Source of the DNA: an uncultured Gemmatimonadaceae bacterium
GTDB lineage: Bacteria > Gemmatimonadota > Gemmatimonadetes > Gemmatimonadales > Gemmatimonadaceae
Length of the DNA stretch: 64,000 nucleotides
Reading direction: 5' to 3'
NCBI GenBank assembly: GCA_963781585.1
Contig: CAWAGQ010000013.1
Location: 128,001-192,000, forward strand
Shown here: piece after piece, positions 77 through 63,248 of the stretch
Position numbering within the stretch: position 1 is the stretch's first letter
Layout: each line of letters opens with the position of its first letter
Notes under the pieces: generated by a model
The model's database searches: none
Seen by the model: the letters and a program-made list of their open reading frames with translations, nothing else
What the model was told of the DNA's origin: nothing
Made by a program: the position numbers and the translations under genes

Positions 77-355
77 TCATCCTGTTAGGCTGAGCGTAAC
101 GCGGTACATGAGGTGGCCGTCATCGACCACATGCCCTCGAATGATTCCCTCTGCAAGAAGGAAATCCAGCGTCGAAGAAACCAACTCTGGCGTCAAGTCT
201 GTCGTATCGTGGGCGAGCGCGGTTACATCGAGAAACATTTCGCGTGGAGCTTGCTCATAAAGCGTCGCGAGGACCAACGCGACAGCGTGGTTAAACGGGT
301 CAGAGTATGTCATGGACTCGTCAGGCAAATTTGGTCGTCGGAGGTGCAGTTCCAC
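77..355 (-). CDS. Hypothetical protein, possibly winged-helix-like; may be C-terminally truncated
   Basis: ORF with protein-like composition (FNHAVALVLATLYEQAP...STLDFLLAEGII). The true start may be the second Met (MTYSD). Co-oriented with the two small upstream genes. Confidence 0.5.
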   Translation of the reverse strand: MELHLRRPNLPDESMTYSDPFNHAVALVLATLYEQAPREMFLDVTALAHDTTDLTPELVSSTLDFLLAEGIIRGHVVDDGHLMYRVTLSLTG

Positions 356-565
356 TCACAGCCTGGGAGACGCACCGTAAATCGTAAGAATCTTGATCGT
401 CTGGTTCTGAAGCGGCTTCTCGCGGCGCCTAACCCTCGGTTGAGAAAGGAAATGACGAACCGACAAGAGGACCTCTTCGCGGCTCAGCGTTCGATATGCC
501 ATTACCTGATACGTCATATTATTCGCGTCGTCGCGCAGGGTGTTGCAAATGTTAGGCATTTCCAC
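356..565 (-). CDS. Small basic hypothetical protein
   Basis: 69-aa ORF (TYQVMAYRTLSREE...) tightly packed between its neighbours on the same strand. Confidence 0.6.
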   Translation of the reverse strand: MEMPNICNTLRDDANNMTYQVMAYRTLSREEVLLSVRHFLSQPRVRRREKPLQNQTIKILTIYGASPRL

Positions 566-583
566 TTTTGGCTCCCGGCGAGC

Positions 584-790
584 CTATTTCTTCCGGTTGT
601 ACGGCTTTTGATTCGTCGGGCTGAGGGAGATGTCCTCCGCGCTGGCTCGCGTATACACCGCGGCCGCCGTACGACCGAGCTTCAACGCGATCACTCGGGT
701 CGGCGTGTTGCCGCCGGCCAGCTCACGCAGCTGCTGATCGTCGCGGGCCGTCCAATCCTTGCCGGTGTTCCTGATGTATTTCGGCGTCAT
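584..790 (-). CDS. Small helix-turn-helix (Myb/GcrA-like) hypothetical protein
   Basis: WT..DD.QL.EL....TPTRVIALKLGRT..AV...AS pattern, typical of small HTH proteins; GGAG upstream. Confidence 0.75.
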   Translation of the reverse strand: MTPKYIRNTGKDWTARDDQQLRELAGGNTPTRVIALKLGRTAAAVYTRASAEDISLSPTNQKPYNRKK

Positions 791-1046
791 CTTCGGGTCT
801 CCTGCGGTATTGAACCAGAAATCGTACGAATAGCCGGGTCCGGCACAACCACGGATCGCACATTGCTCATGAACATCATCATCTTGACATTAATGAGGAA
901 TATGGTCTTTATCAATGCATGATCGACTGCGGAGCCTTGGGTACGACGCAGCCGAATCATAGGGACTCCCAACTCGCATACCCAATCAACGGAGGAACCA
1001 CCCATGACTCGCAATCCACTTCAATCACGCCGAAGGAACACGCGGT

Positions 1047-1149
1047 GACCTTGCAGAAAGGTCCACAGTAAAATGGCTCCTTACGCAAGTGCGGGGAGCA
1101 ACTGGGGCATTTCACTGAGCGGGCGACCTGCAAAAAACCCAGCAAGGTC
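1047..1149 (+). promoter_or_regulatory. Putative TA operator/promoter: two GACCT...AGGTC inverted repeats around a TAAAAT -10-like box
   Basis: GACCTT-GCAGA-AAGGTC at 1047-1063, TAAAAT at 1069-1074, and GACCTGC...GCAAGGTC at 1125-1149, just upstream of the antitoxin RBS. Confidence 0.4.
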
Positions 1150-1165
1150 TGGGGGAGGGATTGTA

Positions 1166-1402
1166 ATGGCGAAGCTGAACGAACTGAGTGTGTCCGATCT
1201 CCGCAGCCAGCTTCCGAGTGTTCTGCACCGAGCGCTCGCGTTCGGTGAGTCGTTTCTGATTCTGAAACATGGTCAACCTTTTGCCGTTCTTTCACCACTG
1301 ACTGACAAGGAGGAGATCGAGCGCGTCCGAGCGAAGCTCAGCAGTGAGGGTGCCGACCGCGAACCGGTAGATGACGTGCTGGACGCGGAGTCGATCACGT
1401 GA
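1166..1402 (+). CDS. Phd/YefM-family antitoxin
   Basis: LSVSDLRSQLPSVLHRA...GESFLILKHGQPFAVLSP is the Phd N-terminal pattern; acidic tail; GGGAGG RBS before ATG 1166. Confidence 0.8.
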   Translation: MAKLNELSVSDLRSQLPSVLHRALAFGESFLILKHGQPFAVLSPLTDKEEIERVRAKLSSEGADREPVDDVLDAESIT

Positions 1403-1446
1403 TTTCACGCCGGCGACGAGTGGTTCGCCGGAGGGGGTAAGCAGGA

Positions 1447-1689
1447 ATGGCAGTCGCGTTCTATTTCTTACCTTCGGCTGCGGAGCGGATGATGCGGTTG
1501 CCGCCCGACCTCTTGGTTCAAGCGGAGCAGATGCTCCAGGAGATCCAAGGACATGTCGGGGGTCACATCGGCGTCGAAGGCATGGTCGCGTACCGTCGAC
1601 CGACGCCACACGGCCAGATCCGAATCGTCCTCGCAGTCGTCCGGAACGAGATCATTGTCGCCGACGTAAACGTGGAGGTGTCGGGCTGA
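1447..1689 (+). CDS. Putative RelE/ParE-fold toxin-like protein
   Basis: Directly downstream of the antitoxin; F.PSA....LP N-terminus and G.IRIVL.V....IIV..V C-terminal strands resemble the RelE layout; divergent. Confidence 0.5.
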   Translation: MAVAFYFLPSAAERMMRLPPDLLVQAEQMLQEIQGHVGGHIGVEGMVAYRRPTPHGQIRIVLAVVRNEIIVADVNVEVSG

Positions 1690-2019
1690 AGCGTTTTTCG
1701 AAACGCAACGGCGTGCAGTCCGGAATCGTTGAAAGCCAACTGATGCGAAAAAACATGACAAAGAGGGGTCAGCCAGCGTTTCGCGGGCCGACCCCTCGTT
1801 TTTCTAACCTCAGGCCGCCGACTTCTTGCCCGAGCTTTACACGGCTGCGGGCAACGCCCGTGGCAGGTCCAGCGAGCATCGTGAGATTGCGCGGTCGCCA
1901 CCATGCAAGCGGCTGGCCCCACGCCCACCGGGTTATCGCGCCGTGCTCGAAAACGGCGCACAAAGCCCGCCGTCACTCTTAAATGCTTTGGTTACGCAGA
2001 CAGCGCCGGCACGAGACTC

Positions 2020-2484
2020 CTACGTGAGGGCGCGCGGCTCGCCGCTGTTGCCCTTGAGCTCAGCGTTGCGCATCTGGTAGCAGAGAATAATCGTGGCGGC
2101 GATGCCAAGAGCGCACGCGCCGACGAGGACCCATGCTGGGTCGCTGTGGCGGCCGGAAATCAGAACTGCGGTGACTAGGACGGCATTTACAATCGCATGT
2201 GCAACTGTAAGAACGAGCGCAACTGCGAAGTGCTGTCTTGGCGCGACCGTCGCGCCAACGTATACGAATGCCAGAGGCCCGACGATGCTGTTGATGAGCT
2301 GAGAATATGCCTTTTCAAAGAATTCAGGCAAACCGGTAAGCGAGTTACCAATGGCGACGAGAATCTGAATAGCTATGTATGCGGCCGCCGCAGCGGGGAG
2401 CACGAGGGCCCAGCGTGCCCAAGCGGGGATGGAGGAGAGGGTCACGTCTCGAGTTCTTCTTACCCTGATGGCAGCGTCACGCAT
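2020..2484 (-). CDS. Hypothetical membrane protein (~4 TM)
   Basis: Hydrophobic segments after RWALVLP; ATG at 2484 lies next to the upstream stop. Confidence 0.6.
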   Translation of the reverse strand: MRDAAIRVRRTRDVTLSSIPAWARWALVLPAAAAAYIAIQILVAIGNSLTGLPEFFEKAYSQLINSIVGPLAFVYVGATVAPRQHFAVALVLTVAHAIVNAVLVTAVLISGRHSDPAWVLVGACALGIAATIILCYQMRNAELKGNSGEPRALT

Positions 2485-2485
2485 G

Positions 2486-2953
2486 CTAGACGCTTCCCAC
2501 GGTTGGAACGGCGAACCTTCCGTGAAGCTTGAACGTTGCTTCGACCGCGCGAGCTGCCACAACGAGCACCGCGATGGCCAGACCAACGTTAGTCCCAGGC
2601 GCCGACGTGATACCGACGTTGTTGAGAAGAGTAACCGCGCCGCTGCCAATGGCGGCCAACAGGAGGATCACGGCGGCGATCCGCGAATGCCACTTGCGGA
2701 GGATCGCACCCAGAACGAGGTACGCGAGAGCATCAAGTAACAAGTCGGTTGACGTCGCCCGCGGAATGAAGAGCCCTAACGCTGCTTCGATTGCTGCAAG
2801 GAAGAAGAATGCCGAAGACGAGTCTTTGACCACTTTGAGCGCGTCGTCCCTGTTCGCAATCGCTGAGAACAAGCCGTTTCTCTTCGGTGCAACCGCCATA
2901 GGCAAGCTCCGGAAGGCGTTTAGCTGCCTAACTGGGTTTGGAACCCTTTCCAT
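2486..2953 (-). CDS. Hypothetical membrane protein (~4 TM)
   Basis: Four hydrophobic stretches (FFFLAAIEAALG; SRIAAVILLL); start may be at the internal MAVAPK. Confidence 0.65.
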   Translation of the reverse strand: MERVPNPVRQLNAFRSLPMAVAPKRNGLFSAIANRDDALKVVKDSSSAFFFLAAIEAALGLFIPRATSTDLLLDALAYLVLGAILRKWHSRIAAVILLLAAIGSGAVTLLNNVGITSAPGTNVGLAIAVLVVAARAVEATFKLHGRFAVPTVGSV

Positions 2954-2980
2954 GTGTCCGTCCTCGCCTCGTTGACGACG

Positions 2981-3421
2981 TCATGTCGGGGGGAGGAAGA
3001 CGAAGAGCAAGACGGCGCAGATCGGCAGCACGAAGAAACCAACCCTCCCCATGATGTCGAACACACCCGTGTTATCGAGGCCTCCGAACCGAACAAGAGG
3101 GACCAAGACAGCCCACTGCATTGCCAACGACAGCGGGAATGCTATGGCCAGCAGTTTGACGGCTTCCAGCCATCCATTTCGATAGGCGAAATAGAGAAGG
3201 AAAGCCCAGCCAAAGACTCGCGCGATGAGAAGGACCGACCCAAACACCAGCTGCGGGCGGGTCGACGCGGGACCGCCACTCATGTACCCCTGGTGGAGCT
3301 TCAACATGTAGTACTCGTTCATGCGGAAGAGCGCATAGACGAGAATGAGTGAAACTGGCACGCCGAGGACCATGGCCGTGCGAATGTGCCGACTTTGTCC
3401 GATGCCGGTAAGGGACGACAA
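2981..3421 (-). CDS. Hypothetical membrane protein
   Basis: Multiple hydrophobic helices; same orientation as the two downstream genes; start uncertain. Confidence 0.55.
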   Translation of the reverse strand: MSSLTGIGQSRHIRTAMVLGVPVSLILVYALFRMNEYYMLKLHQGYMSGGPASTRPQLVFGSVLLIARVFGWAFLLYFAYRNGWLEAVKLLAIAFPLSLAMQWAVLVPLVRFGGLDNTGVFDIMGRVGFFVLPICAVLLFVFLPPT

Positions 3422-3927
3422 GCCTCTTACTCCGGACCTTCACGGTAGAAATCCCAAAGGGGCACCCATTCGGCCGGTGTCCCGAGGATGTCCTAATCGG
3501 TCACCGACGGGGCCCTCCACGACTCAACCGCCAGTCGCTAAGTCCTTCTCTGCCAACGCCTGTCACTGGGTGGCACGCCTAACGTCACGCTCCTAAGTCC
3601 CGCGCGTCTACCAGTTCCGCCACTTCCGCGTCCTGGAGAAGAAGGCACAGCGTTGACCAAGGTGTGCTCACCGCCCCTGGAAGATAGCCCTGCCGGAATT
3701 ACCCTGACAACGTGGATGCCCACTCCGATGCCGGGGCGTCACCGCCGAGCCCCACGCGGCGCGATGCAGGCCGACGCCGTTCAAGCGGCCGAATGGTTGG
3801 GCCTCTTCCGGGGACTGGCGACGCCTGCCGATCCCGTCCACATTGGCAGCGCGACGCGGCCCGACCGCGGCCCGGCTTGTGCGCGGAAGCGGTCGCACAC
3901 CCTCCCACCCTAACGACCTTTCTCTTC

Positions 3928-5271
3928 GTGTCTGCGCCGCAAACCAATTCCCACGACTATCCCTGCATCATCGTTCCTCTACCGGGGCCGCGCGCGCGGG
4001 ACATCGTGGAGCGCGATCGAACCTGGACGTCGCGCGCCTACATCAAGGAGTATCCACTCGTCGTCGCGCGGGGCCGCGGCGTCATGGTTGAAGACGTCGA
4101 CGGGAACCGGTTTCTGGACTTCATGAGCGGCATCGCCGTCTCGAGTACGGGTTATGGCCATCCTCGCGTGGTGGCGGCGGTACAGGAGGCGGCAGCCCGA
4201 TTCCTGCACATTTGTGGCTCGGATTTCTACTTCGAAGGGATGGCTGCCCTGTGCGAACGTCTGGCTCGACTGGGGCCCGGGCCGTCGAAAAAGCGCGTCT
4301 TCCTCACCAACTCCGGCACCGAGGCCATCGAGGGGGCCATCAAGATGGTGCGTCATGCGACTCGCCGCACCGCGATCGTCGCGTTCAAGGGCTCATTCCA
4401 CGGGCGCACCACCGGAGCGCTCGCCCTCACGTCGAGCAAGGCGCGGCAGCACGCCGGCTTCGGACCCCTGCTCCCTGATGTGCACCACGTGGCGTACCCC
4501 TACCGCTACCGCTGCGAGTGGTGCGCGCGGGAAGACCGATGCACGCGGGACTGCGTCTCGAACATCGAGACCGATCTGTTCGCGCGCCACCTCGATCCGG
4601 GCGACGTCGCGGCGATCTTCGTCGAGCCGATACAGGGGGAGGGCGGATATATCGTGCCCCCCGATGGATTCCTGCGTGACCTGCGCGCGCTGTGCGACCG
4701 GCACGGCATCCTGCTGGTGTTCGACGAGATCCAGAGCGGGATCGGACGGACGGGGAAGATGTTCGCCTGCGAATACGAGGGCGTTGAGCCCGACATTCTG
4801 GTGACCGCGAAGGGGCTCGCATCGGGCATGCCCCTCGGCGCCATCATCGCCAGGGAGGCGATCGAAACCTGGGAAGGGGGCGCGCACGGCTCGACGTTCG
4901 GGGGCAATCCGGTGTCGTGCGCGGCGGCCCTCGCCACCCTGGAACTGGTGGAGAGCGAGCTGGCCGCCAACGCCGCGCGGCGCGGTGAGCAGCTCCTTGA
5001 CGGCGCGCGCCGCCTGGCGGAGCGGTGTGAGGGCATCGGTGAGGTGCGGGGACGCGGTCTGATGGTCGGCCTGGAATTCGTACGCGACCGCGACTCGCGT
5101 GAACCCGATGCGGAGGCCTCGCACGCTCTGGTTCACGACGCTTTTCACCGGGGCGTGCTGGTACTGGGCGCCGGGAAGAGCGTGGTACGATTGGCGCCGC
5201 CTCTGGTAATCGATCAACACGACATCGGCGTCGGCCTTCGCGTGCTCGAGGAGTGTCTGGCATCCGGGTGA
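3928..5271 (+). CDS. Class-III PLP aminotransferase (acetylornithine/4-aminobutyrate aminotransferase family)
   Basis: DVDGNRFLDF, NSGTEA, FHGRT, EPIQGEGG, FDEIQSG.GRTG and AKGLASGMP (PLP Lys) motifs; GTG start at 3928 chosen. Confidence 0.92.
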   Translation: MSAPQTNSHDYPCIIVPLPGPRARDIVERDRTWTSRAYIKEYPLVVARGRGVMVEDVDGNRFLDFMSGIAVSSTGYGHPRVVAAVQEAAARFLHICGSDFYFEGMAALCERLARLGPGPSKKRVFLTNSGTEAIEGAIKMVRHATRRTAIVAFKGSFHGRTTGALALTSSKARQHAGFGPLLPDVHHVAYPYRYRCEWCAREDRCTRDCVSNIETDLFARHLDPGDVAAIFVEPIQGEGGYIVPPDGFLRDLRALCDRHGILLVFDEIQSGIGRTGKMFACEYEGVEPDILVTAKGLASGMPLGAIIAREAIETWEGGAHGSTFGGNPVSCAAALATLELVESELAANAARRGEQLLDGARRLAERCEGIGEVRGRGLMVGLEFVRDRDSREPDAEASHALVHDAFHRGVLVLGAGKSVVRLAPPLVIDQHDIGVGLRVLEECLASG

Positions 5272-5425
5272 GTTGGCACCGGGCTGGCGCGGTGTGCCGG
5301 AGTCGCGAGGGGAAGAAGACGGGGGTCGCGAGCCTGGGCTCACGACCCCCGTCGAGCCTCCACGAGGAGGCGTCGGATCAGCCGCGACGGAAGCCTGTGA
5401 CAGGCTCCCGCGCGGCACATCGTCC

Positions 5426-6979
5426 CTAGTTCCCGCCCACTCGCAGCGTCACGACGCGCGTCGACTGCGCGCCCGCGCTGTAAACGAGGAAACTGACGAG
5501 CTGCCCATCCTTGAGATTCGACACCACCTGCTGCAGATCGGTCGTGGCGCGCAGCGTGGTGCGCGTGGGGTACAGCGTTGACACGAGGATGTCGTCCTGC
5601 AGGAGCTGCGTGTGCGCCGGTCTATCCTGGTTGATGTCGGTGACACGCAAACCCCGTCGGTCCTCGGGAATGTTGTTGTCGCGCGCTTCCGCAGGCGTAA
5701 TGGGCATGACCGAGAAGCCGAGCCTGTTGTAGACCGCCCCACGGTTCGGCCGCTCGCCGGTCGGCGCCTTCGACGCCATACCAACCGTCGAGTCGGGGAC
5801 CTCGCCCAGCCTGACCTGGAACGTCTTGTCCTGCCCGAAGCGCATGGCCTCGACGCTGACCACGTCGCCCGGCTCGTGCGAGCGGATGATGCGCTGCAGC
5901 GTGCTCACGCGATCGGCGGGCTTGCCATCGGCTTTGATGATCACGTCGCCGGGCTGCAGCCCCGCCTTGCTCGCGGGCGAATCGTCGCCGGAATAGTCGC
6001 CCACCTGAACCCCTGTGATCTCCTTGAGGCCGGCGGCGGCGGCATCCTCGGGCGTCGCATTTTGAATCCGGACACCGAGCATCGCGCGGCGCACGCGGCC
6101 GTGCGTGATGATGTCATCCATCACGTCCTTGGCGAGGGTAATCGGAATCGCGAAGCCGTAGCCGGAGAAGTATCCGGTCTGGCTGGCGATCATCGAGTTG
6201 ATGCCGATGACTTCGCCGCGCACATTCACCAGCGGCCCACCCGAGTTGCCCGGATTGATCGCGGCGTCGGTCTGGATGAAATCGGTGATGGCGTAGTTGG
6301 CATTGTTCGGTGTGGGGAGATCCGTTCGGTCACGCCCCTTCGCGCTCACGATGCCGGCTGTGACGGTGAAGTCGAGACCGAGGGGATTCCCGATTGCCAA
6401 CACCCACTCGCCGACCTGGGTCGCGTCGTCGTTGCCGAGAGCGGCAACTGGAAGGTTGTGCGCGTCGATCTTGACTACGGCAACATCGGTGGTTGGGTCG
6501 CGCCCGATGAGCTTGGCCTCGAAGGTCCGGCGATCATTCAGGGTCACGTGGAGCTTGTCGAACGAGTCGACCACGTGGTTGTTGGTCAGGATGTAGCCAT
6601 CCTTGCTGACGATGAAGCCGGACCCGCTTCCCGCCCGCGGCTCCTGAAACTGCGGTCCGAACTGTCCGAAGAAGTCGTCGAGACTGGGCGCCTGATCGTT
6701 GCGACGACTGCGCTGGGGCTGCGGCTGGGTGCGTTCGGCGGTTATGGAAACCACGGCCGGGGTCACTTCCTGGGCGATGGAGGTGAACGCGTTGTTCAGC
6801 GCCAATACCGCCGGCGCATTGGGCGGCGTGGCCGGGGCGTTGGACACCCGACTGACGGGGGTCGTCTGCGCGTAGCCGAACGGGGTATGCTCGAAGCCCG
6901 ATGCGATGATGAGGCCGCCGATGAACGCGCCGACCAGCGCGCCGGCGAACTTGGCACGAGAGAGATTGAACCACGACAT
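5426..6979 (-). CDS. degP: Do/HtrA-family serine protease with two PDZ domains
   Basis: GSGFI, TNNHVV, TDVAV and QTDAAINPGNSGG catalytic triad motifs; N-terminal TM/signal; PDZ regions. Confidence 0.93.
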   Translation of the reverse strand: MSWFNLSRAKFAGALVGAFIGGLIIASGFEHTPFGYAQTTPVSRVSNAPATPPNAPAVLALNNAFTSIAQEVTPAVVSITAERTQPQPQRSRRNDQAPSLDDFFGQFGPQFQEPRAGSGSGFIVSKDGYILTNNHVVDSFDKLHVTLNDRRTFEAKLIGRDPTTDVAVVKIDAHNLPVAALGNDDATQVGEWVLAIGNPLGLDFTVTAGIVSAKGRDRTDLPTPNNANYAITDFIQTDAAINPGNSGGPLVNVRGEVIGINSMIASQTGYFSGYGFAIPITLAKDVMDDIITHGRVRRAMLGVRIQNATPEDAAAAGLKEITGVQVGDYSGDDSPASKAGLQPGDVIIKADGKPADRVSTLQRIIRSHEPGDVVSVEAMRFGQDKTFQVRLGEVPDSTVGMASKAPTGERPNRGAVYNRLGFSVMPITPAEARDNNIPEDRRGLRVTDINQDRPAHTQLLQDDILVSTLYPTRTTLRATTDLQQVVSNLKDGQLVSFLVYSAGAQSTRVVTLRVGGN

Positions 6980-7151: not shown

Positions 7152-7227
7152 CTCACCCTTCTATGTACTGCTGCGGCGCGTACTCCGCGCCACATCGGAC
7201 GGTACCCGATCGGTCCTTAATCGCGGA

Positions 7228-9177
7228 TTACTTCTTGGTACCGTCGTCGACGATCTCGTAGTCCGCCTCCACAACGTCCTCTGGCTTGGCGTCAGTGGGC
7301 GCGCCGGCAGCGGCCGGTTCTCCGCTGGGCGCCGGCTCGCCGGCAGGAGGCGCGCTCGCCTGCTGCTGCGAGTACAGCGAGCGTCCGGCTTCCTGGTACG
7401 CGGTATTGAGCTCCTCGAGCGCCGCGCGTACCTCGCTCATGTCGGCGCCTCGATGCGCCTTCCTGGCGCGCTCGACGGCTGCTTCGAGACGAGTCCTGGC
7501 GTCAGCGCCGAGCCGGTCGGCCCACTCCTTGGCGTTCTTCTCGACCTCGTAGGCGAGCGAGTCGAGCCGGTTGCGGGTGTCGATCTCCTCCCGGTGCTGC
7601 TTGTCGTCCGACGCATTCCGCTCGGCGTCCTTCACCATTCGCTCGATCTCGTCTTTCGAGAGTCCGCTGGACGCTTCGATGCGGATCTTCTGCTCCTTGT
7701 TGGTGGCCTTGTCCTTTGCCGAGACGTGGAGAATGCCGTTCGCGTCGATGTCGAACGTTACCTCGACCTGCGGCATGCCACGCGGAGCGGGGGGAATGCC
7801 GGTCAGGTGGAATTTGCCGATGGTACGATTGTCGCGCGCCAGCTCGCGTTCCCCCTGCAGGACATGGATTTCCACGGTCGTCTGGTTGTCGTCGGCCGTG
7901 GAGAAGACCTCGGTCTTGCGGGTGGGGATGGTGGTATTGCGCGGAATGAGCACCGTCATCACGCCACCCAGGGTCTCGATTCCTAACGAGAGCGGTGTGA
8001 CGTCGAGCAGTAGCACGTCCTTCTGCTCTCCGGTGAGCACGGCGCCCTGGATGGCAGCGCCAATTGCTACCACCTCGTCGGGGTTGACACTCTTGTTCGG
8101 CTCCTTGCCGAAGAAGTCCTTGACGATCTGCTGCACTTTCGGGATGCGAGTGGAGCCGCCCACCAGGATGACCTCGTCGACCGACTTGGGGTCCAGCCCC
8201 GCGTCCTTGAGCGCCTGCTGCATGGGAGGAATGGTGCGCTTGATCAGGTCGTCAACCAGCTGCTCGAACCTGGCCCGCGTCAGCGAGTAGTTGAGGTGTT
8301 TCGGCCCGGACTGGTCGGCCGTGATGAAGGGCAGATTGATATCGGTCGTCATCGTGGACGACAACTCCATCTTCGCCTTCTCGGCCGCTTCCTTGAGCCG
8401 CTGGAGCGCCATCGGATCCTTCGACAGGTCGATCCCCTGATCCCGCTTGAACTCGGCTACCAGCCACTCGATCACCCGCTGGTCGAAGTCGTCGCCTCCG
8501 AGGTGCGTGTCGCCATTGGTTGCCTTGACCTCGAACTGGCGCGTGCCTTCGACGTCGTAAAGTTCCAGAACCGAGATGTCATACGTGCCGCCCCCCAGGT
8601 CGAAGACGGCCACCTTTTCGTCCTTGCCCTTCTTGTCGAGCCCGTACGCCAACGCCGCGGCGGTCGGCTCGTTGATGATCCGCAGCACCTCCAGCCCGGC
8701 AATCTTGCCGGCGTCCTTGGTGGCCTGTCGCTGGGAATCGTTGAAATACGCCGGCACGGTCACCACGGCCTTCGACACGCCAAAGCCGAGGTAGTCTTCC
8801 GCCGTCTGCTTCATCTTCTGAAGGATCATCGCCGAGATTTCGGGCGGCGTGTATCGCTTTCCCTGTACTTCGACCGCCGCCATGTCGTTCGGTCCGGCGA
8901 CAACCGAGTAGGGCACGCGCTTCATCTCCTCGGCAACTTCGGCAGTGCGCCGGCCCATGAAGCGCTTGATGGAGAAGACCGTGTTCCTGGGGTTCGTCAC
9001 CGCCTGCCGCTTGGCGATCTGGCCGACGAGGCGCTCACCGTCCTTGGTAAAGCCGACAACTGACGGGGTGGTTCTTCCCCCCTCGGAATTGGGAATGACG
9101 ACGGGATCGCCGCCTTCCAGGACCGCGACCACCGAGTTGGTGGTGCCCAGATCGATGCCGATTACCTTGTCCGCCAT
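7228..9177 (-). CDS. dnaK: Chaperone DnaK (Hsp70)
   Basis: [31 protein letters not shown] and GGSTRIP motifs; [10 protein letters not shown] tail; GAGGTGGAG RBS. Confidence 0.98.
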
Positions 9178-10254: not shown

Positions 10255-10545
10255 ATGCTCCTTGCGCGCGTACTCGGGCGGGTCGTTGCCACCGTCAAGC
10301 AGGACACGCTGCAATCGGTGTCATTGCAGTGGATTCAGCCGTTGTCGGCGGGCGGTGAGCTGGCGGGGAAGCCGCTGGTTGCCACCGATCCCCTCGGTGC
10401 GGGTCCCGGCGAGGTCGTGGTTTACATCACAGCGCGAGAGGCCGCGCTCTCGCTCCGGAACAGTTTCGCCGCGGTGGACGCGAGCATCGTTGCGAAAGTG
10501 GACTGGTGCGACACGGAAGGCGGCCGAACGCTCGAGGCTCACTGA
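10255..10545 (+). CDS. EutN/CcmL-family bacterial microcompartment vertex (BMC-P) protein
   Basis: M.LARV.G.VVAT.K, VA.D.LGAG.GE.V and VDA.IVA.VD motifs of the EutN/CcmL family. Confidence 0.9.
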   Translation: MLLARVLGRVVATVKQDTLQSVSLQWIQPLSAGGELAGKPLVATDPLGAGPGEVVVYITAREAALSLRNSFAAVDASIVAKVDWCDTEGGRTLEAH

Positions 10546-10546
10546 G

Positions 10547-53555: not shown

Positions 53556-54302
53556 ATGCTCCCGATTACGATTCTCACCATATTCCCTGACTACTTCAGC
53601 GCTCCGCTCGGACTCAGTATTCCGGCGCGCGCGGCGGAGGTGGGCGTGGTGTCGTATCGGGTGGTCGACCTGCGGGACTTCACCCACGATCGGCATCGGA
53701 CGGTGGATGACTACGCGTATGGAGGCGGGGCAGGCATGGTGATGAAGCCGGAGCCGTTCTTCGAAGCCGTCGACGCGCTGCGGCCGGAAGGACCAATCGT
53801 GCTGCTCTCGCCGCGCGGGCGCACCTTCAGCCAGGACGACGCGCGGCGGTACGCCGGGGCGCCCGGGCTGACGCTGCTCTGCGGTCACTACAAGGACGTG
53901 GACCAGCGCGTGGCCGATCACCTGGCGACCGAGGTCGTCTCGTTAGGCGATTTCGTGCTGAGCGGCGGGGAACCGGCGGCACTGGCGGTGATCGATGCCA
54001 CGGTGCGCCTGCTCCCCGGCGCCATGTCCAGGCTCGAGAGCGCCCACGGCGACTCCTTCTTCGACCGCGACCTCAGCGCGCCGAGCTACACGAGGCCGCC
54101 CGAGTACCGGGGACACGCGGTGCCGGACGTGCTGCTGTCGGGCGACCACAAGCGGATCGCCGCGTGGCGACGCGACGTGGGCGACCGCCTGAGCCGGGAA
54201 CGCCAGCCGAACGGCGCGGGTACGCCCCGGGTGTCGACCGCGGCGGGGAAACCGGACCACGCCCCGACCGGCCGCGGCGTCGTCGAACGCGACCATTCCT
54301 GA
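53556..54302 (+). CDS. trmD: tRNA (guanine-N1)-methyltransferase
   Basis: TIFP, VDD..YGGG.GMV, SLGDFVLSGGE, YTRP and VPDVLLSGDH. Confidence 0.96.
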   Translation: MLPITILTIFPDYFSAPLGLSIPARAAEVGVVSYRVVDLRDFTHDRHRTVDDYAYGGGAGMVMKPEPFFEAVDALRPEGPIVLLSPRGRTFSQDDARRYAGAPGLTLLCGHYKDVDQRVADHLATEVVSLGDFVLSGGEPAALAVIDATVRLLPGAMSRLESAHGDSFFDRDLSAPSYTRPPEYRGHAVPDVLLSGDHKRIAAWRRDVGDRLSRERQPNGAGTPRVSTAAGKPDHAPTGRGVVERDHS

Positions 54303-57119: not shown

Positions 57120-57791
57120 ATGAACAATTTCAGCAGACTGCCCGCGATCGCCCTGGCGACGATGGTAGCTGGTGCGTGTGCGACGAAAGGGTACGTGCGC
57201 CAGCAAGTGGAAACCGGCGTGACCGCCGAGCGTGTCGCGCGTGTCTCAGCCGACAGTTCCCTGACGGGGAACGTCAACGACCTGAATTCGCAGGTCACGA
57301 CGGTGAAGTCGGACGTGGCGTCGTTGAAGAACGACGTCGCCGCGCTGCGCAGCGATCTGACCTCACTGCGCACCGAATTCGACGCGAAGATCACGGCGAT
57401 GGAGAACGGCATGAAGTTCGCGTTCCCGGTGACGTTCGCGTTCGACGATGCGACGGTCCGTGACGAGGACCGGGCGGCGCTCGATCAGTTCACCAAGGTG
57501 GTGAACAAGTACTATGGCGGATCGGTGCTGACGGTTGAGGGCCATGCGGACCCCGCCGGCTCCGCGACCTACAACAACAAGCTCTCCAAGGAGCGCGCCG
57601 AAGCGGTTGCGGCGTACCTGACGCAGGCCGGACTCACGGGTGTGGATGTACGCACCGTCGGGTATGGCGAGAGCCGTCAGGTGGTGAAGGGCGCCGAGAA
57701 GGACGAGCCCGGAGCCGACTCGAACCGCCGCGTGGTGTTCGTCGTCGAGTCGAAGGGGACGGCTGCTGCCACCGTGTCGAGCATGCCGTAA
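57120..57791 (+). CDS. OmpA-family peptidoglycan-associated lipoprotein with coiled coil
   Basis: AGAC lipobox, heptad coil, FAFD, VEGHAD..G...YN..LS..RA..V and GYGE...NRRV. Confidence 0.92.
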   Translation: MNNFSRLPAIALATMVAGACATKGYVRQQVETGVTAERVARVSADSSLTGNVNDLNSQVTTVKSDVASLKNDVAALRSDLTSLRTEFDAKITAMENGMKFAFPVTFAFDDATVRDEDRAALDQFTKVVNKYYGGSVLTVEGHADPAGSATYNNKLSKERAEAVAAYLTQAGLTGVDVRTVGYGESRQVVKGAEKDEPGADSNRRVVFVVESKGTAAATVSSMP

Positions 57792-57850
57792 CGGACCGGC
57801 GGCGCTCGGCCACGAGCGCCCCGACGCTGGCGCCAGTGCGCCGGCATCCG

Positions 57851-57883
57851 AGAGGCCCGGGAGTCCGCTCCCGGGCCTCTTTC
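57851..57883 (+). terminator. Intrinsic terminator between convergent genes
   Basis: AGAGGCCCGGGAG-TCCG-CTCCCGGGCCTCT followed by TTC. Confidence 0.7.
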
Positions 57884-57885
57884 AT

Positions 57886-59348
57886 TCAGGAGGCGGCGAG
57901 CGGCGCGGTCGCCGGAACGGGCAGCGTCAGGCGAAAGAGACTTCCGCCGGGACCCGTTTTCGCCAGGGTGACGTCGCCGCCATGCGCGCGTACGACCCAG
58001 CGTGCGATGGCCAGCCCCAGCCCAGCCCCGCCCGGACGAGCGGCGGCATCGTCGTGGTGGGGCGCGCGATAGAAGCGCTCGAAGATGCGCTCGGCGGCGT
58101 GAGGCGGCACGCCCACGCCGGTGTCCTCGACGTCGATCCCGTATGAGCCGTTGTCGCGGCTCGGCGCGGACCGTGACCCGGCCGCCCGGCGGCGTGTACT
58201 TCACGGCGTTGTCGAGGAGGTTCATGACGGCCCGTTTGAGCAGCGTCTCGTCGCCCGAGAACGGGAGGTCGTCGTCACCGAGCTCCGGGGCCAGACGTGA
58301 TGCCCTTCGCGGCGGCCAGGGACCGGGCCGCGCGCACGCACTCCTCGAGGACATCGCGGAGGTACAGTTCCTCGTCGCGAACGGGGCGCGAGCCGCCCTC
58401 GCTCTGCGCGAGCAGGAAGAGGTCGTCGACGATGCCGCGCAGCCGCCGGCTTTCCGCGCGAACGGCGGTCAGGGCGTCGCGCAGCTCTTCCGTGCGGCGG
58501 TCGGGTCTCGACAGCGCCAGTTCGCTCTCACCGCTGATGACCGCGACGGGCGTGCGCAGCTCATGCGAGGCGTCGGCCATGAACCGGCGCTGCTCCTCGA
58601 AGGCGCGCTCGAGGCGGTCGAGCAGGTCGTTGAAGACCGCGGCCAGGCGTCCGAGTTCGTCGCGCGGATTGCCCTCCGGCAGTCGCTCGTGCAGCGACGA
58701 CGCCCCGATAAAGGCGGCGCGCTCGGTCATGGAGGCGACCGGATGCAGGCTCTTCCGGGCGAGCATGTATCCGCCGATGGTGGCGAACCCCAGCAGAATC
58801 GGGATGACGAGCAGGAGCACGATGCCGACGTCGCGGAGCAGCTTCTGCTGCGCCCGCAACCGCTGGACGGTGGCGATCACGAGCGAATGGCTGCCGAGGG
58901 TATAGGGCATCGTGTAGACGCGAAGGGTTTCGTCTCCTTCGCGCACGGTGCGGAATGTCTGGGCGTCGGCCGGCGTGCGCTGCATCAGCGAGTCCATGTC
59001 GCTGACGACCGGGACGGTGGTCACCAGGGCGGACGTGGAGTTCGGGTCCACGCCGGCGCGCGCGTGGAAGGCGATCCCGGTTCCGCGGTCGAGCACCACC
59101 ACGTCGGTCTCGCGCAGCCGGAACGCGCGCACGACGTCGGCAATGGCGACGCTGTCGGACTTGCCGCTGTTGCGCTCGTACTCCATCGCGCCGGTGACGG
59201 CGCTGGCGGTCTCGGCGAGGAATTCGTTGATGCGCGCGAGACTCGATTGCCGGAGGAAGAGGAAGACGGCGACCGCGAAGGCCGCCAGAAAGACCGTGAA
59301 GACGCCCGCGTACCAGAGGGCGATCCGGGCCCGGATCGAGTGGAGCAC
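57886..59348 (-). pseudogene. HAMP sensor histidine kinase with two frameshifts (~58295 and ~58160)
   Basis: RRFMADASHELRTP H-box; the N-box (NLLDNAVKY) and the G boxes (EDTG.G, RIFERFYR, GAGLGLAI) each lie in different frames. Confidence 0.85.
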
Positions 59349-59349
59349 G

Positions 59350-60081
59350 TCAGCGCGGTCGCGTCGAGCGTCCCCGCGTGCCGGCCGGTTCGTTAGGCGC
59401 GGCGTCGTCCGCGACGTCGGCCAGCAGGTAGCCGGCGCCGCGCCGGGTGTGGATGAGCGCGCGTCCGGCGCCCTCATCCACCTTCTTGCGCAGGCGGTTG
59501 ATGTAGACCTCGATGGCGTTGGAGAAGGGGTCGTGGTTCTCGTCCCAGACGTGCTCGCACAGCTCGGCCCGTCCCACGACCCGTCCCGCGTGGCGCGCCA
59601 GGTACTCGAGCATCACGTATTCCTTGCCGGTGAGGCGCAGCGGCCGTTCGGCGCGGGTGGCCGTCTGGCCGGCGGTGTCGATCCGCAGGTCGGCGACGGT
59701 GAGGACGGCGGGCAGCAGCGACGGCATGCGGCGCAGGAGAGCACGCAGCCGCGCGTGCAACTCCTCGAGCTCGAAGGGCTTGGTGAGGTAGTCGTCCGCC
59801 CCGGCGTCGAGACCCGTGATGCGATCGGGCAGGGTGTCGCGCGCGGTGAGCATGAGAATCGGGACCTGAAGGCCGCGCCGCCGCAACTCGCGGCTGACCT
59901 CGATGCCATCCTTGCGAGGCAGGCCGATATCGAGGATCAGGGCGTCATATGGATTGACCGCGGCCTGGAAGATGGCCGCGTCGCCATCGACGGCCAGATC
60001 GACCGCGTAGCCCCGTTCGCGCAAGCTGCGGGCCAGCATGTCCGCCAGGCGGGCGTCGTCTTCGACAACAAGGAGTCGCAT
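59350..60081 (-). CDS. OmpR-family response regulator (CusR/CzcR-like)
   Basis: MRLLVVEDD, LDIGLP, GLDAGADDYL.KPF, SN.IEVYI.RLRKK and IHTRRG.GY. Confidence 0.93.
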   Translation of the reverse strand: MRLLVVEDDARLADMLARSLRERGYAVDLAVDGDAAIFQAAVNPYDALILDIGLPRKDGIEVSRELRRRGLQVPILMLTARDTLPDRITGLDAGADDYLTKPFELEELHARLRALLRRMPSLLPAVLTVADLRIDTAGQTATRAERPLRLTGKEYVMLEYLARHAGRVVGRAELCEHVWDENHDPFSNAIEVYINRLRKKVDEGAGRALIHTRRGAGYLLADVADDAAPNEPAGTRGRSTRPR

Positions 60082-60247
60082 GGGAATGATCCCGATCGAG
60101 CGGGGTGTGCGGGCGTTAGCCGCCGTTTAGGTGGAGTCCCGTAACGTCATCCCGCGAATCGATGCACGACAGCGGGACAAGTGGCCGTCGGGGCTTTCGA
60201 CATCGCGGATCGCAAGACAGTACCACCAATCTACCAGAGGAGTTCAT

Positions 60248-60541
60248 ATGACCCGTAAGCTGATCGCCCTCCTCGCATCGCTGGCGCTCGCGTCACCGGT
60301 GCTGGGCGCCCAGCAGTCGAAGGCGGCGGCGCCGAAGCCTGCGGCGTCGCAAGCGGCGACGGCGGCGAAGGGCAAGGCAGATACCGCCAAGACCAAGGCC
60401 GACTCCACCAAGGCCAAGACTGCGGCGACGAAGAAGTCCACCACCGGCAAGTCGGCGACGACCAAGGGGAAGTCGAAGTCCGCGACGACGCACAAAGGCG
60501 CGACGAAGGATTCGACCAAGGCCGCGCCGAAGAAGCCGTAG
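60248..60541 (+). CDS. Small secreted Lys/Ala/Thr-rich low-complexity protein
   Basis: AGAGGAG RBS, signal peptide, then KADTAKTKADSTKAK-type repeats. Confidence 0.75.
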   Translation: MTRKLIALLASLALASPVLGAQQSKAAAPKPAASQAATAAKGKADTAKTKADSTKAKTAATKKSTTGKSATTKGKSKSATTHKGATKDSTKAAPKKP

Positions 60542-60593
60542 CGCGGTAGTACTGCCGCGCTGTGTTCGCCGCTGCGTGCTCCTGGGGGTGTAG

Positions 60594-63248
60594 ATGTCCA
60601 ACGCAGTGTTGCGGTCCGTGGGCGGGCACAGCGCGGTTCCCGCGCCTCCGAAGGCGCGGCACGACAAATCGAGTGACGAGCGGTCGCGCCTGACGCCGCG
60701 CCGACGCCGGCTCCGGCAGTGGGGAATGCTGGCCGGCGTGCTGACCCTGTTTGGCACCGCACTCTTCCTGTTGCACCGCGAGCTGGCGCGGTACAGCTAT
60801 CGCAACATCGCCCAGGCAGTCCGCGACATCCCGACGCCGCTGCTGATTCTCGCCGGGGCGGCGACCGCCGCCTCGTATGCGCTGCTGTTCGGATACGACT
60901 GGCTGGCGCTGCGCTATGTGGGGCGCCGCCTGACGATTCGGCGCACCGCGCTGGCGTCGTTCATCGCCTACGCGTTCAGCCAGAGCCTGGGTGTGTCGGC
61001 CCTGACCGGGGCGTCGGTCCGGTTCCGCTTCTGGTCGGCGTGGGGGTTGTCGCCGGAGGAGATCGCGCAGGGCGTCGCGTTCACCACGGCGGCGTTCTGG
61101 CTGGGGGCATCGACGCTGGGTGGTCTGGCGGCACTCGCCGCCGGCGGCGTTGCACCCGGACTGGTTCCACCGGTGTTGTCGGGTGTCGGCGGCGTACTGC
61201 TCCTGCTGCCGGCGGTGGCGTACCTGGTGTGGGTCGGCCGCGGACGCCCGACGCTGGCGCTGCGGCGCTGGTCGCTCCATCCGCCGGCCCCACGGTTGGC
61301 GGTGGCGCAGATCGTCGTGGCCAGTCTCGACTGGACGCTGGCCGGTGTGGCGCTCTACCTGGTGCTCCCGCACGACGGGGGGCTGACGCTGGCACGGCTG
61401 CTCGGGGCGTTCCTGATCGCGCAGATGGCGGGTCTGGCCAGCCACGTACCGGGCGGGGTGGGCGTGTTCGATACCACGATGCTCGTGCTCCTCGAACGCT
61501 ATGCACCGGTGCCGCGGATCGCGGCCTCGCTGCTCGCCTACCGGTTCATCTACTACCTGCTCCCGTTAGGCGCGGCGACCATCGCGTTCGCGGCGCACGA
61601 GATGACGGTGCGGCGGCGGATGGTGACGCGGGCGGTCCGGATCGTCGGCCGGGTGGTCGCTTCGTCCGCCCCGTTCTGGCTGAGCGGCGCCACGTTCGTC
61701 GCCGGAGTGCTGCTCCTGGCATCGGGATCGACGCCGTCGGTGCACAGCCGGCTGCGGTTCCTCGACGCGCTGTTCCCGCTGGCGGTGATCGAGCTGTCCC
61801 ACTTCGCCGCCAGCGTCGTGGGCGTGGTACTGCTGCTGGTGGCCAACGGGCTGCGACGCCGGCTCGACGCGGCTTGGCACGTGGCGGTGGCGTTGCTGGC
61901 GGTGGGCATCGGCGCGTCGTTGCTCAAAGGCGGCGATTACGAAGAGGCTCTCACGCTGGCGATCGTGCTTGGCGCCCTGCTGCCGGCGCGCCGCCACTTC
62001 TACCGTCGGGCGGCGCTGCTGGCCGAGCCGCTGTCGGCGGGGTGGATGGTGGCGGTGACGCTGGCGATCGCGGCCACCACCTGGCTCGGGATCTTCTCGT
62101 TCAAGCACGTTCCGTATCGCGCGAGCATGTGGTGGCGCTTCGCCACCACCGCGGACGCGCCGCGGTTCCTCAGGGCGACGGTCGGGGTGGCGGTGGTGCT
62201 GATCGGGTATGCGATGGCGCGGTTGCTGCGGCCTTCACGGGCGCGCACCGTGAGGCCGTCGCCCGCGGAACTGGCGCGCGCCGGCGAGGTGGTGTCGGCG
62301 GCCGGGTCGGGCGACCCGTACCTCGCCCTGCTTGGCGACAAGAGCCTGCTTTTCTCGAAGTCGGGACGCGGCCTCCTGATGTACGGTGTGCATCGGGACG
62401 TGTGGGTGGCGCTTGGGGATCCGGTGGCGACGCCCGGGGAGGCCCGCCAGCTGGTGTGGGAGTTCTGTGAGCAGGCCGACGCGCACGGGGGGTATCCCGC
62501 GTTCTACGAGATCGGCCACGACAGCCTGCCGATGTACGTCGACCTGGGGCTGTCGCTGGTGAAGGTTGGCGAGGAAGCCCGCGTGTCGCTGCCGAGCTTC
62601 GCCCTGGACGGGGGAGGGCGAAAGGGCCTGCGGCGGGCGCTCCGCGACGGGGAGCGCGCCGGCCTCAGTCTCCAGATCGTTCGTCCGCCGTTCCAGCCCC
62701 TGCTGATGGAGGAACTGGCGGCTCTGTCCGACGCCTGGCTGGCGGAGCGCCACACGCGCGAGAAGGGATTCTCGTTAGGCTTCTTCGATGTCGACTACCT
62801 CGAGCGGTTTCCGCTGGCGCTGGTCTGGCAGGGCAGCCGGGTGGTCGCGTTCGCCAACCTGTGGATGTCGGCCGGGAACCAGGAGTTGTCGGTAGACCTC
62901 ATGCGGCACGTCCCCGATGCGCCCGACGGGGTGATGGACTTCCTGTTCCTGCGGCTGATGCTCTGGGGGCGCGAGGCGGGCTTCTCGTGGTTCAACCTCG
63001 GCATGGCCCCGCTCTCCGGGTTCGAGACGCATTCGCTGGCGCCGCTCTGGAGCCGGCTCGGCGCACTCGTGTACCGCCATGGCGAGCATTTCTACAACTT
63101 CCGCGGACTCCGGCAGTACAAGGAGAAATTCGATCCGGTGTGGACGCCGAAATATCTCGCGTCGCCGGGCGGGTGGCGGCTCCCGGTGGTGCTCGGAAGC
63201 ATCGCCGCGCTGATCGGCGGTGGGTTCAAGGGAGTGGTCGCGAAGTGA
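60594..63248 (+). CDS. mprF: Bifunctional aminoacyl-phosphatidylglycerol flippase/synthetase
   Basis: Many TM segments, VPGG.GVFD, LLAYR.IYYLLP, LLGDK, LGDPV, EKGFSLG, DLMR, LGMAPL and YNF.GL..YK.KF.P.W. Confidence 0.95.
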   Translation: MSNAVLRSVGGHSAVPAPPKARHDKSSDERSRLTPRRRRLRQWGMLAGVLTLFGTALFLLHRELARYSYRNIAQAVRDIPTPLLILAGAATAASYALLFGYDWLALRYVGRRLTIRRTALASFIAYAFSQSLGVSALTGASVRFRFWSAWGLSPEEIAQGVAFTTAAFWLGASTLGGLAALAAGGVAPGLVPPVLSGVGGVLLLLPAVAYLVWVGRGRPTLALRRWSLHPPAPRLAVAQIVVASLDWTLAGVALYLVLPHDGGLTLARLLGAFLIAQMAGLASHVPGGVGVFDTTMLVLLERYAPVPRIAASLLAYRFIYYLLPLGAATIAFAAHEMTVRRRMVTRAVRIVGRVVASSAPFWLSGATFVAGVLLLASGSTPSVHSRLRFLDALFPLAVIELSHFAASVVGVVLLLVANGLRRRLDAAWHVAVALLAVGIGASLLKGGDYEEALTLAIVLGALLPARRHFYRRAALLAEPLSAGWMVAVTLAIAATTWLGIFSFKHVPYRASMWWRFATTADAPRFLRATVGVAVVLIGYAMARLLRPSRARTVRPSPAELARAGEVVSAAGSGDPYLALLGDKSLLFSKSGRGLLMYGVHRDVWVALGDPVATPGEARQLVWEFCEQADAHGGYPAFYEIGHDSLPMYVDLGLSLVKVGEEARVSLPSFALDGGGRKGLRRALRDGERAGLSLQIVRPPFQPLLMEELAALSDAWLAERHTREKGFSLGFFDVDYLERFPLALVWQGSRVVAFANLWMSAGNQELSVDLMRHVPDAPDGVMDFLFLRLMLWGREAGFSWFNLGMAPLSGFETHSLAPLWSRLGALVYRHGEHFYNFRGLRQYKEKFDPVWTPKYLASPGGWRLPVVLGSIAALIGGGFKGVVAK

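Follow-up and report, generated by a model that had tools for sequence, protein, structure and literature searches.

We identified a short DNA word, CGTTAGG(C), that recurs throughout a stretch of 64,000 nucleotides from an uncultured Gemmatimonadaceae bacterium (assembly GCA_963781585.1, contig CAWAGQ010000013.1, positions 128,001 to 192,000; hereafter the window, with positions counted from its first letter). It is a double-stranded DNA recognition word that has been spread through one clade of the Gemmatimonadaceae by a strong sequence-specific force, and it has been written on both strands wherever the DNA tolerates it, namely at synonymous xCG-Leu-GGC sites, antisense to Pro-Asn codon pairs, over stop codons and in non-coding DNA. 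An initial annotation of the window had listed 21 copies of the heptamer GTTAGGC, and all 21 proved exact in position (14 on the plus and seven on the minus strand). None of 100 dinucleotide-preserving shuffles reached this number (mean 2.45, maximum 7), and GTTAGGC was the top-ranked 7-mer of the window (order-2 Markov expectation 1.5). G precedes TTAGGC in 21 of 21 cases, and the 26 occurrences of GTTAGG are followed by C in 21 and preceded by C in 19.

Genes of the window were called by a codon model trained on the window itself and named from Pfam (63 open reading frames, ORFs, scanned). They contain 15 copies of the heptamer, as compared with 0.93 ± 0.98 (maximum 5) in 1,000 synonymous-codon shuffles of all called genes, a shuffle used in place of a dicodon-preserving one because the latter would retain TTA-GGC by construction. 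Counts at the shuffled level, which had been named at the outset as the result that would speak against the word, were not observed. Fourteen of the 21 copies are read in sense as xxG-TTA-GGC (Leu-Gly), in line with the frame first reported for most of them, one is antisense G-CCT-AAC, and six lie outside called genes, where 0.55 would be expected in 8,880 non-coding bases. TTA is as rare as it had appeared (24 of 1,921 leucine codons); 14 of these 24 codons stand within G-TTA-GGC, the fraction proposed as a check, and Gly follows 19 of them. The description of the word as a feature of core genes was too narrow, as copies are also found in non-coding DNA, in an IS21-family istB gene and in an accessory stretch of low GC.

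The shape of the word was derived from the window pooled with 21 enriched loci (22 sequences, 418 kb, 182 copies of GTTAGGC). Position -1 is C in 157 of the 182 copies; at position +7, 113 copies have G and 44 have A. CGTTAGG occurs 217 times (14 expected), GTTAGGC 182 times (12 expected), the octamer CGTTAGGC 157 times (5.3 expected) and CGTTAGGCG 99 times (2.2 expected). The best-defined core is CGTTAGG(C); the heptamer of the initial annotation is enriched, as claimed, and lies one base off this core. Of the one-base variants of the core, only three rise above baseline: a T in place of the last C, a T for the G of core position 6 and a C for the T of position 4. The commonest of them, CGTTAGGTG (14 versus 0.9 expected), has the T for C at the end of the core, within a CpG context. 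The intermediates CGTTGGGCG (6 versus 10.6 expected) and CGCTAGGCG (2 versus 4.5) are not enriched. A longer repeat or mobile element as the carrier of the word was rejected, as the flanks are uninformative beyond the C at -1 and the purine at +7 and the window contains no Rfam family and no tRNA.

The closest relatives of the window by Ffh (up to 88% identity) are metagenome-assembled genomes (MAGs) of Gemmatimonadaceae. We counted the word in 80 loci and placed 79 of them together with the window in an Ffh tree (quick IQ-TREE run, LG+G4). Most of the enrichment falls within one clade of 27 rows, the window among them (SH-like approximate likelihood-ratio support 98), where 492 kb contain 185 copies (0.376 per kb) and 25 of the 27 rows reach 0.1 per kb or more. 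Density is 0.052 per kb in the remaining 45 Gemmatimonadota rows, nine of which reach 0.1 per kb, and likewise in the nine outgroup rows. Enrichment is largely confined to this one clade, in keeping with the lineage-specific iterated signal of the kind of HIP1 or of uptake sequences that had been proposed. One locus nested in the clade, L020, has no copy in 21 kb. At orthologous sites the word is widely shared in some cases and private to the window's lineage in others; relatives without it use CTC or CTG, and a few copies coincide with amino-acid changes (a Clp-like site and mprF codon 280). As an observation apart, two loci of a distant Gemmatimonadota clade with Ffh 63–64% identical, L065 and L060, hold three copies in 8.7 kb and two in 4.1 kb, respectively, and L065 carries the word at the same ffh codons; these could be a second carrier lineage or reflect horizontal spread of the driver.

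Reading frame, strand and spacing

Two of the six frames in which the word could be read are closed by stop codons (GT-TAG-GC and GCC-TAA-C), and Leu-Gly makes up 60–67% of the synonymous opportunities (150 of 224 in the window). With such a share, finding 14 or more of the window's 15 genic copies read as Leu-Gly is no more than mildly surprising (P = 0.02). Among the pooled relatives the word fills 111 of 844 sense Leu-Gly sites (13%) and 15 of 84 antisense Pro-Asn sites (18%), together with 15 of 310 sense Val-Arg sites (5%) and 7 of 165 antisense xGC-CTA-ACx sites (4%); 34 further copies are non-coding. The cultured relative Gemmatirosa kalamazoonensis KBS708, whose 1.1-Mb and 1.0-Mb replicons were sampled as six 50-kb pieces (300 kb), gave 254 copies (141 on the plus and 113 on the minus strand), and 254 of the 275 TTAGG pentamers in these pieces belong to the heptamer. 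Occupancy in the six pieces is 97/744 for Leu-Gly, 39/124 for Pro-Asn, 7/209 for Val-Arg and 11/135 for xGC-CTA-ACx; in pieces L081–L085 it is 91/649, 37/118, 6/183 and 9/124, respectively. Antisense Pro-Asn is filled to 31% in Gemmatirosa as compared with 13–14% for sense Leu-Gly. Nineteen of 399 real stop codons fall within the word, and its density in non-coding relative to coding DNA is about twofold for the GTTAGG core in the pooled relatives and 3.6-fold in Gemmatirosa. Because antisense sites are filled, stop codons are overwritten and non-coding copies are denser, the signal acts on DNA, without preference for the transcribed strand. The sense in-frame Leu-Gly pattern is mostly coding constraint, and the orientation along the coding strand, which the initial annotation had read as a property of the signal, does not hold as such, given the two stop-closed frames and the pooled occupancy of 18% in antisense Pro-Asn versus 13% in sense.

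The pressure on codon choice is strong. TTA takes 11 of 21 leucine codons in the context xCG-Leu-GGC in the window, 88 of 147 in the enriched MAG loci and 69 of 219 in Gemmatirosa, as compared with 2 of 188 in motif-free relatives, a conditioning that is partly circular in that the flanking codons may themselves have been fitted to the word. Outside this context TTA accounts for at most 0.7% of leucine codons (0.2–0.7% outside Gly contexts). The force behind the motif strongly overrides an extreme codon bias.

Occupancy does not differ between presumed leading- and lagging-strand genes of the pooled relatives, with 75/529 versus 36/315 for Leu-Gly (P = 0.29) and 10/50 versus 5/34 for Pro-Asn (P = 0.58), nor for Leu-Gly in Gemmatirosa (49/394 versus 48/350), where replication direction was taken from the sign of the GC skew over stretches of 4–64 kb, a weak proxy at absolute skews of 0.00–0.05 per stretch. 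By this proxy the earlier statement that the word is not replichore-polarised stands, and a polar signal is unlikely.

The spacing of copies was compared with a null in which they were redistributed, class by class, among synonymous opportunities and non-coding positions; this null replaced a naive uniform one. Pairs no more than 200 bp apart number 6 in the pooled relatives versus 15.2 ± 3.4 expected (0.2% of 2,000 simulations as low) and 15 in Gemmatirosa versus 31.6 ± 4.4, where pairs within 400 bp number 28 versus 53.9 ± 5.0 (none of 2,000 simulations as low in either case). The depletion of close pairs is independent of the mutual orientation of the two copies. Copies are spaced more evenly than the opportunity-matched null and avoid each other within a few hundred bases. 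A few non-coding tandem duplicates 7–19 bp apart were seen in Gemmatirosa (L083 7500/7507, L081 22095/22107 and L085 31644/31663).

The Gemmatirosa integron and the solitary copies

The heptamer fits the integron core site GTTRRRY, and this match, already pointed out in the initial annotation, is more than a coincidence of pattern. One KBS708 piece, L086, is extremely dense in copies, which form an array of GCCTAAC ... GTTAGGC pairs 89–91 bp apart with conserved inner arms; a tandem repeat was rejected as the cause, as Tandem Repeats Finder found none. In the fold of ten aligned sites the ends pair over 9 bp (GGCCTAACG / CGTTAGGCC), followed by a spacer without pairing, a second stem interrupted by bulged bases and a tip that varies; nine base pairs show compensatory changes. 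This fold is the architecture of attC, which the passages of PMC3053210 that define it describe by an inverse core RYYYAAC and a core GTTRRRY. In attC the two cores lie 57–141 bp apart and fold into an R box, an L box and extrahelical bases. A covariance model built from the ten sites recovered 82 attC sites at E ≤ 1e-7 over about 45 kb, two outliers included, and an integron integrase adjoins the array (TIGR02249, 423 bits versus a cut-off of 265; intI at L087:6827-7786). Sixteen ORFs towards the left end of the array include no integrase; intI sits at its right end. The octamer CGTTAGGC and its complement GCCTAACG are the R-box stem of the 82 sites. A large integron on a KBS708 replicon is already in print, as stated in part of PMC9024848; what is new is the identity of the genome-wide word with the integron's R-box stem. 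The array comprises about 80 cassettes averaging about 550 bp on replicon 1, with intI at one end, and spans L086 10837-49837 and L087 114-6170; a separate attC pair lies at L087 30951-31831, 25 kb beyond the integrase.

The R' words of the 82 attC sites vary (CGTTAGGC, n = 28; CGTTAGAC, n = 13; CGTTAGCC, n = 10; CGTTAGGT, n = 6), whereas the solitary copies in 250 kb of Gemmatirosa are almost all CGTTAGGC (155, as compared with 2, 1 and 1 of the other three, respectively), and the reader of the solitary copies must therefore be stricter than whatever shapes attC. Cassette interiors hold three copies in 37.1 kb, two of which resemble degenerate attC ends, versus 0.76 per kb elsewhere on the replicons. 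One solitary copy on replicon 1, near 202 kb, lies within the loop of a perfect hairpin of 16 bp (ggctgcgtggctgcgt ... acgcagccacgcagcc; L083 1990-2040). The single-molecule real-time (SMRT) methylome of KBS708 lists only RGATCY, ATGCAC and CCAGN7TCA as motifs of N6-methyladenine (m6A) and reports no other modification (PMC3974934). The adenine of the word is not detectably m6A-methylated in this strain, and the suggestion of a methylation-associated site found no matching motif for m6A, 5-methylcytosine (5mC) lying outside that comparison.

The copies of the window are solitary and are not attC sites. The attC covariance model had no match in the window at E ≤ 1 and, with filters off over positions 1–6,000, none at a motif copy; no tyrosine recombinase was present among the 63 ORFs scanned. 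An attC site formed by the pair of copies at 427 and 551 in the cassette-like left end of the window was considered and rejected on both the fold of positions 420–565, which is no better than shuffles (z -0.21), and the covariance model. The model found one match in 1.06 Mb of 71 Gemmatimonadota loci, on a contig of Longimicrobiaceae (L078 20371-20467, minus strand, 33.5 bits, E 2.8e-4), which is also the single match outside Gemmatirosa. A plasmid of Xanthomonas citri, a species that we take to carry a chromosomal integron, contains no copy of the word versus 2.8 expected, a crude and weak control.

Copies and gene context in the window

Six copies are located outside called genes. The solitary copy at 84–90 (+) may be read antisense, as AGC-CTA-ACA (Ser-Leu-Thr), close to the end of a 77-aa ORF on the minus strand, itself unvalidated. 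The non-coding copies at 427–433 (-) and 551–557 (+), both solitary, make up the GCCTAAC...GTTAGGC pair 124 bp apart, which is not attC. Solitary copies also lie at 2926–2932 (-), within the low-GC (59%) accessory stretch 1–3,700, at 3577–3583 (-), which is non-coding and preceded by C, and at 46794–46800 (-), which is non-coding and adjoins the IS21 element. The low-GC stretch has small ORFs and the look of an accessory island, with five copies in 3.6 kb; it encodes a Phd/YefM antitoxin (1166–1402) followed by an 80-aa ORF, with a terminator-like hairpin near 1760–1800.

Among the sense copies, GCG-TTA-GGC (Ala-Leu-Gly) in ffh (51645–51651, +) and TCG-TTA-GGC in the Walker-A region of Lon (GKT-Ser-Leu-Gly; 49387–49393, -) are widely shared, the same codons carrying the motif in 20 of 80 loci and 14 of 34 relatives, respectively. 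GCG-TTA-GGC is also found in a purine nucleoside phosphorylase family gene (35109–35115, +; motif common to 3 of 15 aligned relatives), in the prepilin peptidase gene pilD (38305–38311, +; 0 of 29), in a gene for a Clp-like AAA+ ATPase (39336–39342, +; 1 of 25, with Ala-Met/Ile-Gly in most relatives) and in a phoR-like sensor kinase gene with HAMP, HisKA and HATPase domains (31790–31796, -). A DUF445 gene has TGG-TTA-GGC at codon 98 (41649–41655, +; 0 of 17 relatives) and ACG-TTA-GGC at 41799–41805 (+; 3 of 17), and trmD has TCG-TTA-GGC (53942–53948, +) with the motif in 1 of 66 relatives and CTC or CTG in the rest. In mprF, CCG-TTA-GGC at codon 280 (61565–61571, +) corresponds to Pro-Phe-Ala in both aligned relatives, and TCG-TTA-GGC (62774–62780, +) is matched in one of the two. 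The IS21-family istB holds CTG-TTA-GGC (45534–45540, +) and ACG-TTA-GGC (45681–45687, +), and a 583-aa protein without Pfam match that adjoins a TonB-dependent receptor has ACG-TTA-GGC (Thr-Leu-Gly; 25734–25740, -). The single antisense copy, G-CCT-AAC (Pro-Asn) at 59392–59398 (+), lies in a minus-strand response regulator. Conservation at orthologous positions, put forward as a check on the word, was found in part of the loci for lon and ffh, in one of 66 for trmD and in none for pilD and DUF445 codon 98.

The variants GTTAGG(A/T/G) mentioned in the initial annotation were found five times, each preceded by C: the core-only variant CGTTAGGA (TCG-TTA-GGA) in dnaK (7981–7987, -) and CGTTAGG[T/G] at 2774, 3908, 21695 (pst permease) and 52404, all on the minus strand. 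Those at 3908, 7981 and 21695 are the only core variants in the 22 kb from 3584 to 25733 (dnaK, ppk, ppx and the pst operon), which are without the exact heptamer. Two tandem EutN/CcmL pentamer genes followed by a DeoC/LacD-family aldolase gene (10255–11811) hint at a bacterial microcompartment locus, on the far side of which lie the phosphate genes PhoU_div, PHO4, ppk, ppx, phoU and pstSCAB.

Three genes appear frameshifted (48064–50456, -; 45298–46223, +; 57677–59348, -). The lon gene is split into an ORF for the N-terminal substrate-binding part and one for the AAA+/protease part with a 37-nt overlap, istB into two overlapping ORFs, and a HAMP/HisKA sensor kinase has only a fragment of HATPase_c, in another frame. 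They could be pseudogenes or indel errors of a long-read assembly. A sequencing or assembly artefact as the source of the word, which these genes brought to mind, was rejected, since independent short-read MAGs and the finished genome of an isolate carry the motif at orthologous codons too; many motif-rich loci are short-read assemblies from unrelated studies, and an assembly artefact is therefore excluded.

Origin of the word and alternative explanations

We tentatively interpret the word as a drive-maintained recognition tag of the DNA-uptake-sequence type that shares the sequence of the integron R box, and assign this reading a probability of roughly 0.35. Fragments bearing the word would be favoured by a DNA receptor on the cell surface, part of a natural-competence system, and homologous recombination of DNA imported from relatives would fix new copies faster than mutation and codon bias erase them. 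A single copy on each imported fragment would be enough, and even spacing would result. An uptake preference for a word that is also the attC R box would favour the import of integron cassettes, which may be the reason for the identity of the two sequences. We prefer a drive of the uptake type because it is a known mechanism that yields this whole set of properties. Like the uptake signal sequences (USS) of Pasteurellaceae and the DNA uptake sequences (DUS) of Neisseriaceae, the word is short, non-palindromic, clade-specific and tens-fold over-represented, occurs in both orientations without replication polarity by the GC-skew proxy, is evenly spaced and denser in non-coding DNA and has a reading-frame bias set by protein tolerance; its near absence from mobile cassettes may be a further likeness. 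USS and DUS are described, in sections of PMC2817400 and PMC1939737, as more even than random, present in both orientations, scarcer in coding DNA, strongly biased in frame and absent from genes without homologs in relatives. Unlike them, the Gemmatimonadaceae word has a core of 7–8 bp rather than 9–12 bp and a lower density (0.3–0.8 per kb), shows neither enrichment of encoded peptides nor inverted-pair terminators, and equals the attC R box, for which USS and DUS have no counterpart.

Several observations weigh against an uptake tag. USS and DUS roughly double the peptides that they encode, according to part of PMC2817400, whereas the peptides encoded by the present word are not enriched, with 8.30 Leu-Gly per 1,000 aa in enriched versus 8.95 in non-enriched loci (ratio 0.93), 0.94 versus 0.82 for Pro-Asn (ratio 1.14, P = 0.30) and a ratio of 1.08 for Val-Arg, in a comparison of low power as motif copies are only about 11–14% of such dipeptides. 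The prepilin peptidase (38051–38911) counts for an uptake tag, but it is the only part of a competence apparatus visible in the 64 kb, and our literature searches, judged by title and opening of the abstract, found no report of uptake, transformation or competence for Gemmatimonadetes or Gemmatimonas. Inverted-pair terminators, which are frequent for DUS, were not seen. The copies in the low-GC left end (five in 3.6 kb) and in the IS21 istB (two) fit poorly with the absence of uptake sequences from foreign genes, and the lack of polarity that the word would share with USS and DUS leans on the weak skew proxy. The depletion in cassette interiors could equally reflect the avoidance of close pairs because attC already supplies the word every ~550 bp. 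Moreover, identity with the R box does not follow from uptake alone and points at least as naturally to an integrase or another intracellular reader.

Such a reader is the main rival, and we regard it as a possibility to be taken seriously, if a doubtful one: solitary copies would be binding or landing sites of the integron integrase, or of a paralogous or partner intracellular protein specific for the R box, and selection would retain them for a role in the chromosome, for instance in recombination control, cassette parking or nucleoid organisation. The exact identity of CGTTAGGC and GCCTAACG with the attC stem of a relative, the bona fide integrase (TIGR02249, 423 bits) beside the array and the T of the commonest last-position variant, which fits the Y of GTTRRRY, all agree with it, as does the near absence of solitary copies from cassette interiors, where stray R boxes would disturb excision. 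In structural terms the copies resemble attG, the secondary sites of integrons, in being double-stranded genomic sequence with a G|TT crossover trinucleotide usable by integrases, and integrases can recombine cassettes into such sites, as reported in portions of bioRxiv 10.1101/2022.09.11.507474. The same portions state, however, that attG needs only GWT and that insertions avoid essential genes. The full octamer is positively enriched here, essential genes included, whereas attG arises by chance; the word occurs in lon, ffh and trmD, genes in which an insertion would be lethal, and has no known benefit there. The strictness of solitary copies next to varied attC R' boxes, the absence of attC beside them (no match in the window and one in 1.06 Mb of 71 loci) and, as a weak control, the Xanthomonas citri plasmid (0 versus 2.8 expected) also speak against an integrase. 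That the copies are scars or remnants of integron activity, left by cassette insertions or decayed attC sites, seems highly improbable. The integron crossover point lies between G and TT, cassette insertion at a secondary site yields a G-TTAGGC junction, and the left end of the window does look cassette-like (low GC, small ORFs, Phd/YefM antitoxin). But the in-frame copies swap codons at conserved Leu-Gly positions without inserted DNA, solitary copies lack the R' variety of real cassettes, and the window has no attC even with filters off, the 427/551 pair not folding like one. Although the heptamer fits GTTRRRY and the octamer with its complement is the paired R box of Gemmatirosa attC, window copies are single half-sites without inverse partner, L box, hairpin or cassette and stand in frame in housekeeping genes.

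Three further readings are likewise less persuasive than the uptake tag and its main rival. HIP1 of cyanobacteria is likewise a lineage-specific octamer, with about one copy per kb in genes at synonymous positions; its mechanism is debated, it is palindromic and linked to methyltransferases, and an explanation by methylation and repair has been proposed for it. By analogy, the present word could be a side effect of short-patch mismatch repair coupled to a cytosine methyltransferase, which we consider improbable. The C to T variant CGTTAGGTG in a CpG context is the change expected from deamination of 5mC, and the KBS708 methylome is compatible with 5mC because SMRT sequencing detects it poorly. 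Unlike HIP1, however, the word is asymmetric and its adenine is without m6A in KBS708, the three m6A motifs listed there being unrelated to it and no other modification being given (PMC3974934). One mismatch repair cannot make TTA from CTC or CTG, the intermediates CGTTGGGCG and CGCTAGGCG are not enriched, and even spacing is not predicted. A polar signal for chromosome maintenance, like Chi or the FtsK-orienting sequences (KOPS), is very improbable. It would account for a short, non-palindromic and over-represented word in conserved genes, and 12 of the 15 genic copies of the window lie on the G-rich plus strand; yet occupancy does not differ between presumed leading and lagging genes, in sense and antisense, by the weak GC-skew proxy, unlike the strand skew of Chi and KOPS that follows replication direction. 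Gemmatirosa has 141 copies on the plus versus 113 on the minus strand, and an enrichment of 30- to 45-fold is far above that of Chi. The chance is negligible, finally, that the rare dicodon TTA-GGC serves translation, by ribosome pausing or by a bldA-like control through a rare tRNA, even if 14 of 15 genic window copies are in-frame sense TTA-GGC and TTA is otherwise nearly unused. Antisense Pro-Asn is filled at an equal or higher rate, non-coding DNA is 2 to 3.6 times denser, stop codons are overwritten, the upstream C belongs to the word while standing in another codon (157/182), and frame use tracks synonymous opportunity. In bldA-type control TTA marks regulated genes whatever its neighbours, whereas here it reaches 52% in xCG-Leu-GGC versus 0.2–0.7% outside Gly contexts.

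The searchable literature, which did not extend to subscription journals or supplementary files, yielded no account of this enrichment; among the papers listed, the 7- and 8-mer strings matched nothing but primers and unrelated constructs. Sequence-specific tags of comparable strength across whole genomes have been described in only a handful of lineages (USS, DUS and HIP1), each informative on recombination, uptake or repair, and this one occurs in a barely studied phylum that is abundant in soil. It works against a very strong codon bias: given a fitting context, TTA rises from about 1% to 50–60% of leucine codons. For binning, the word offers a sharp taxonomic marker of the clade, and a match to GTTRRRY alone does not indicate an integron. 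As it is carried by KBS708, a cultured and non-pathogenic strain with a finished genome, direct experiments on uptake, binding and methylation are feasible. Its identity with the integron core site raises the idea that cassette capture and recognition of relatives' DNA share a reader. In a bolder and rather questionable form of this idea, the integron R box would have been co-opted as a genome-wide self-recognition tag, with a receptor for CGTTAGGC that is part of a competence pilus or of an integrase lineage acting on double-stranded DNA; import and recombination of relatives' DNA would be coupled to cassette capture, and molecular drive would have written the word into about half of the synonymous xCG-Leu-GGC sites of the clade. 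If true, an R box serving as such a tag would be the third known uptake-sequence system, the first outside the Proteobacteria, and the first functional link between uptake specificity and integrons.

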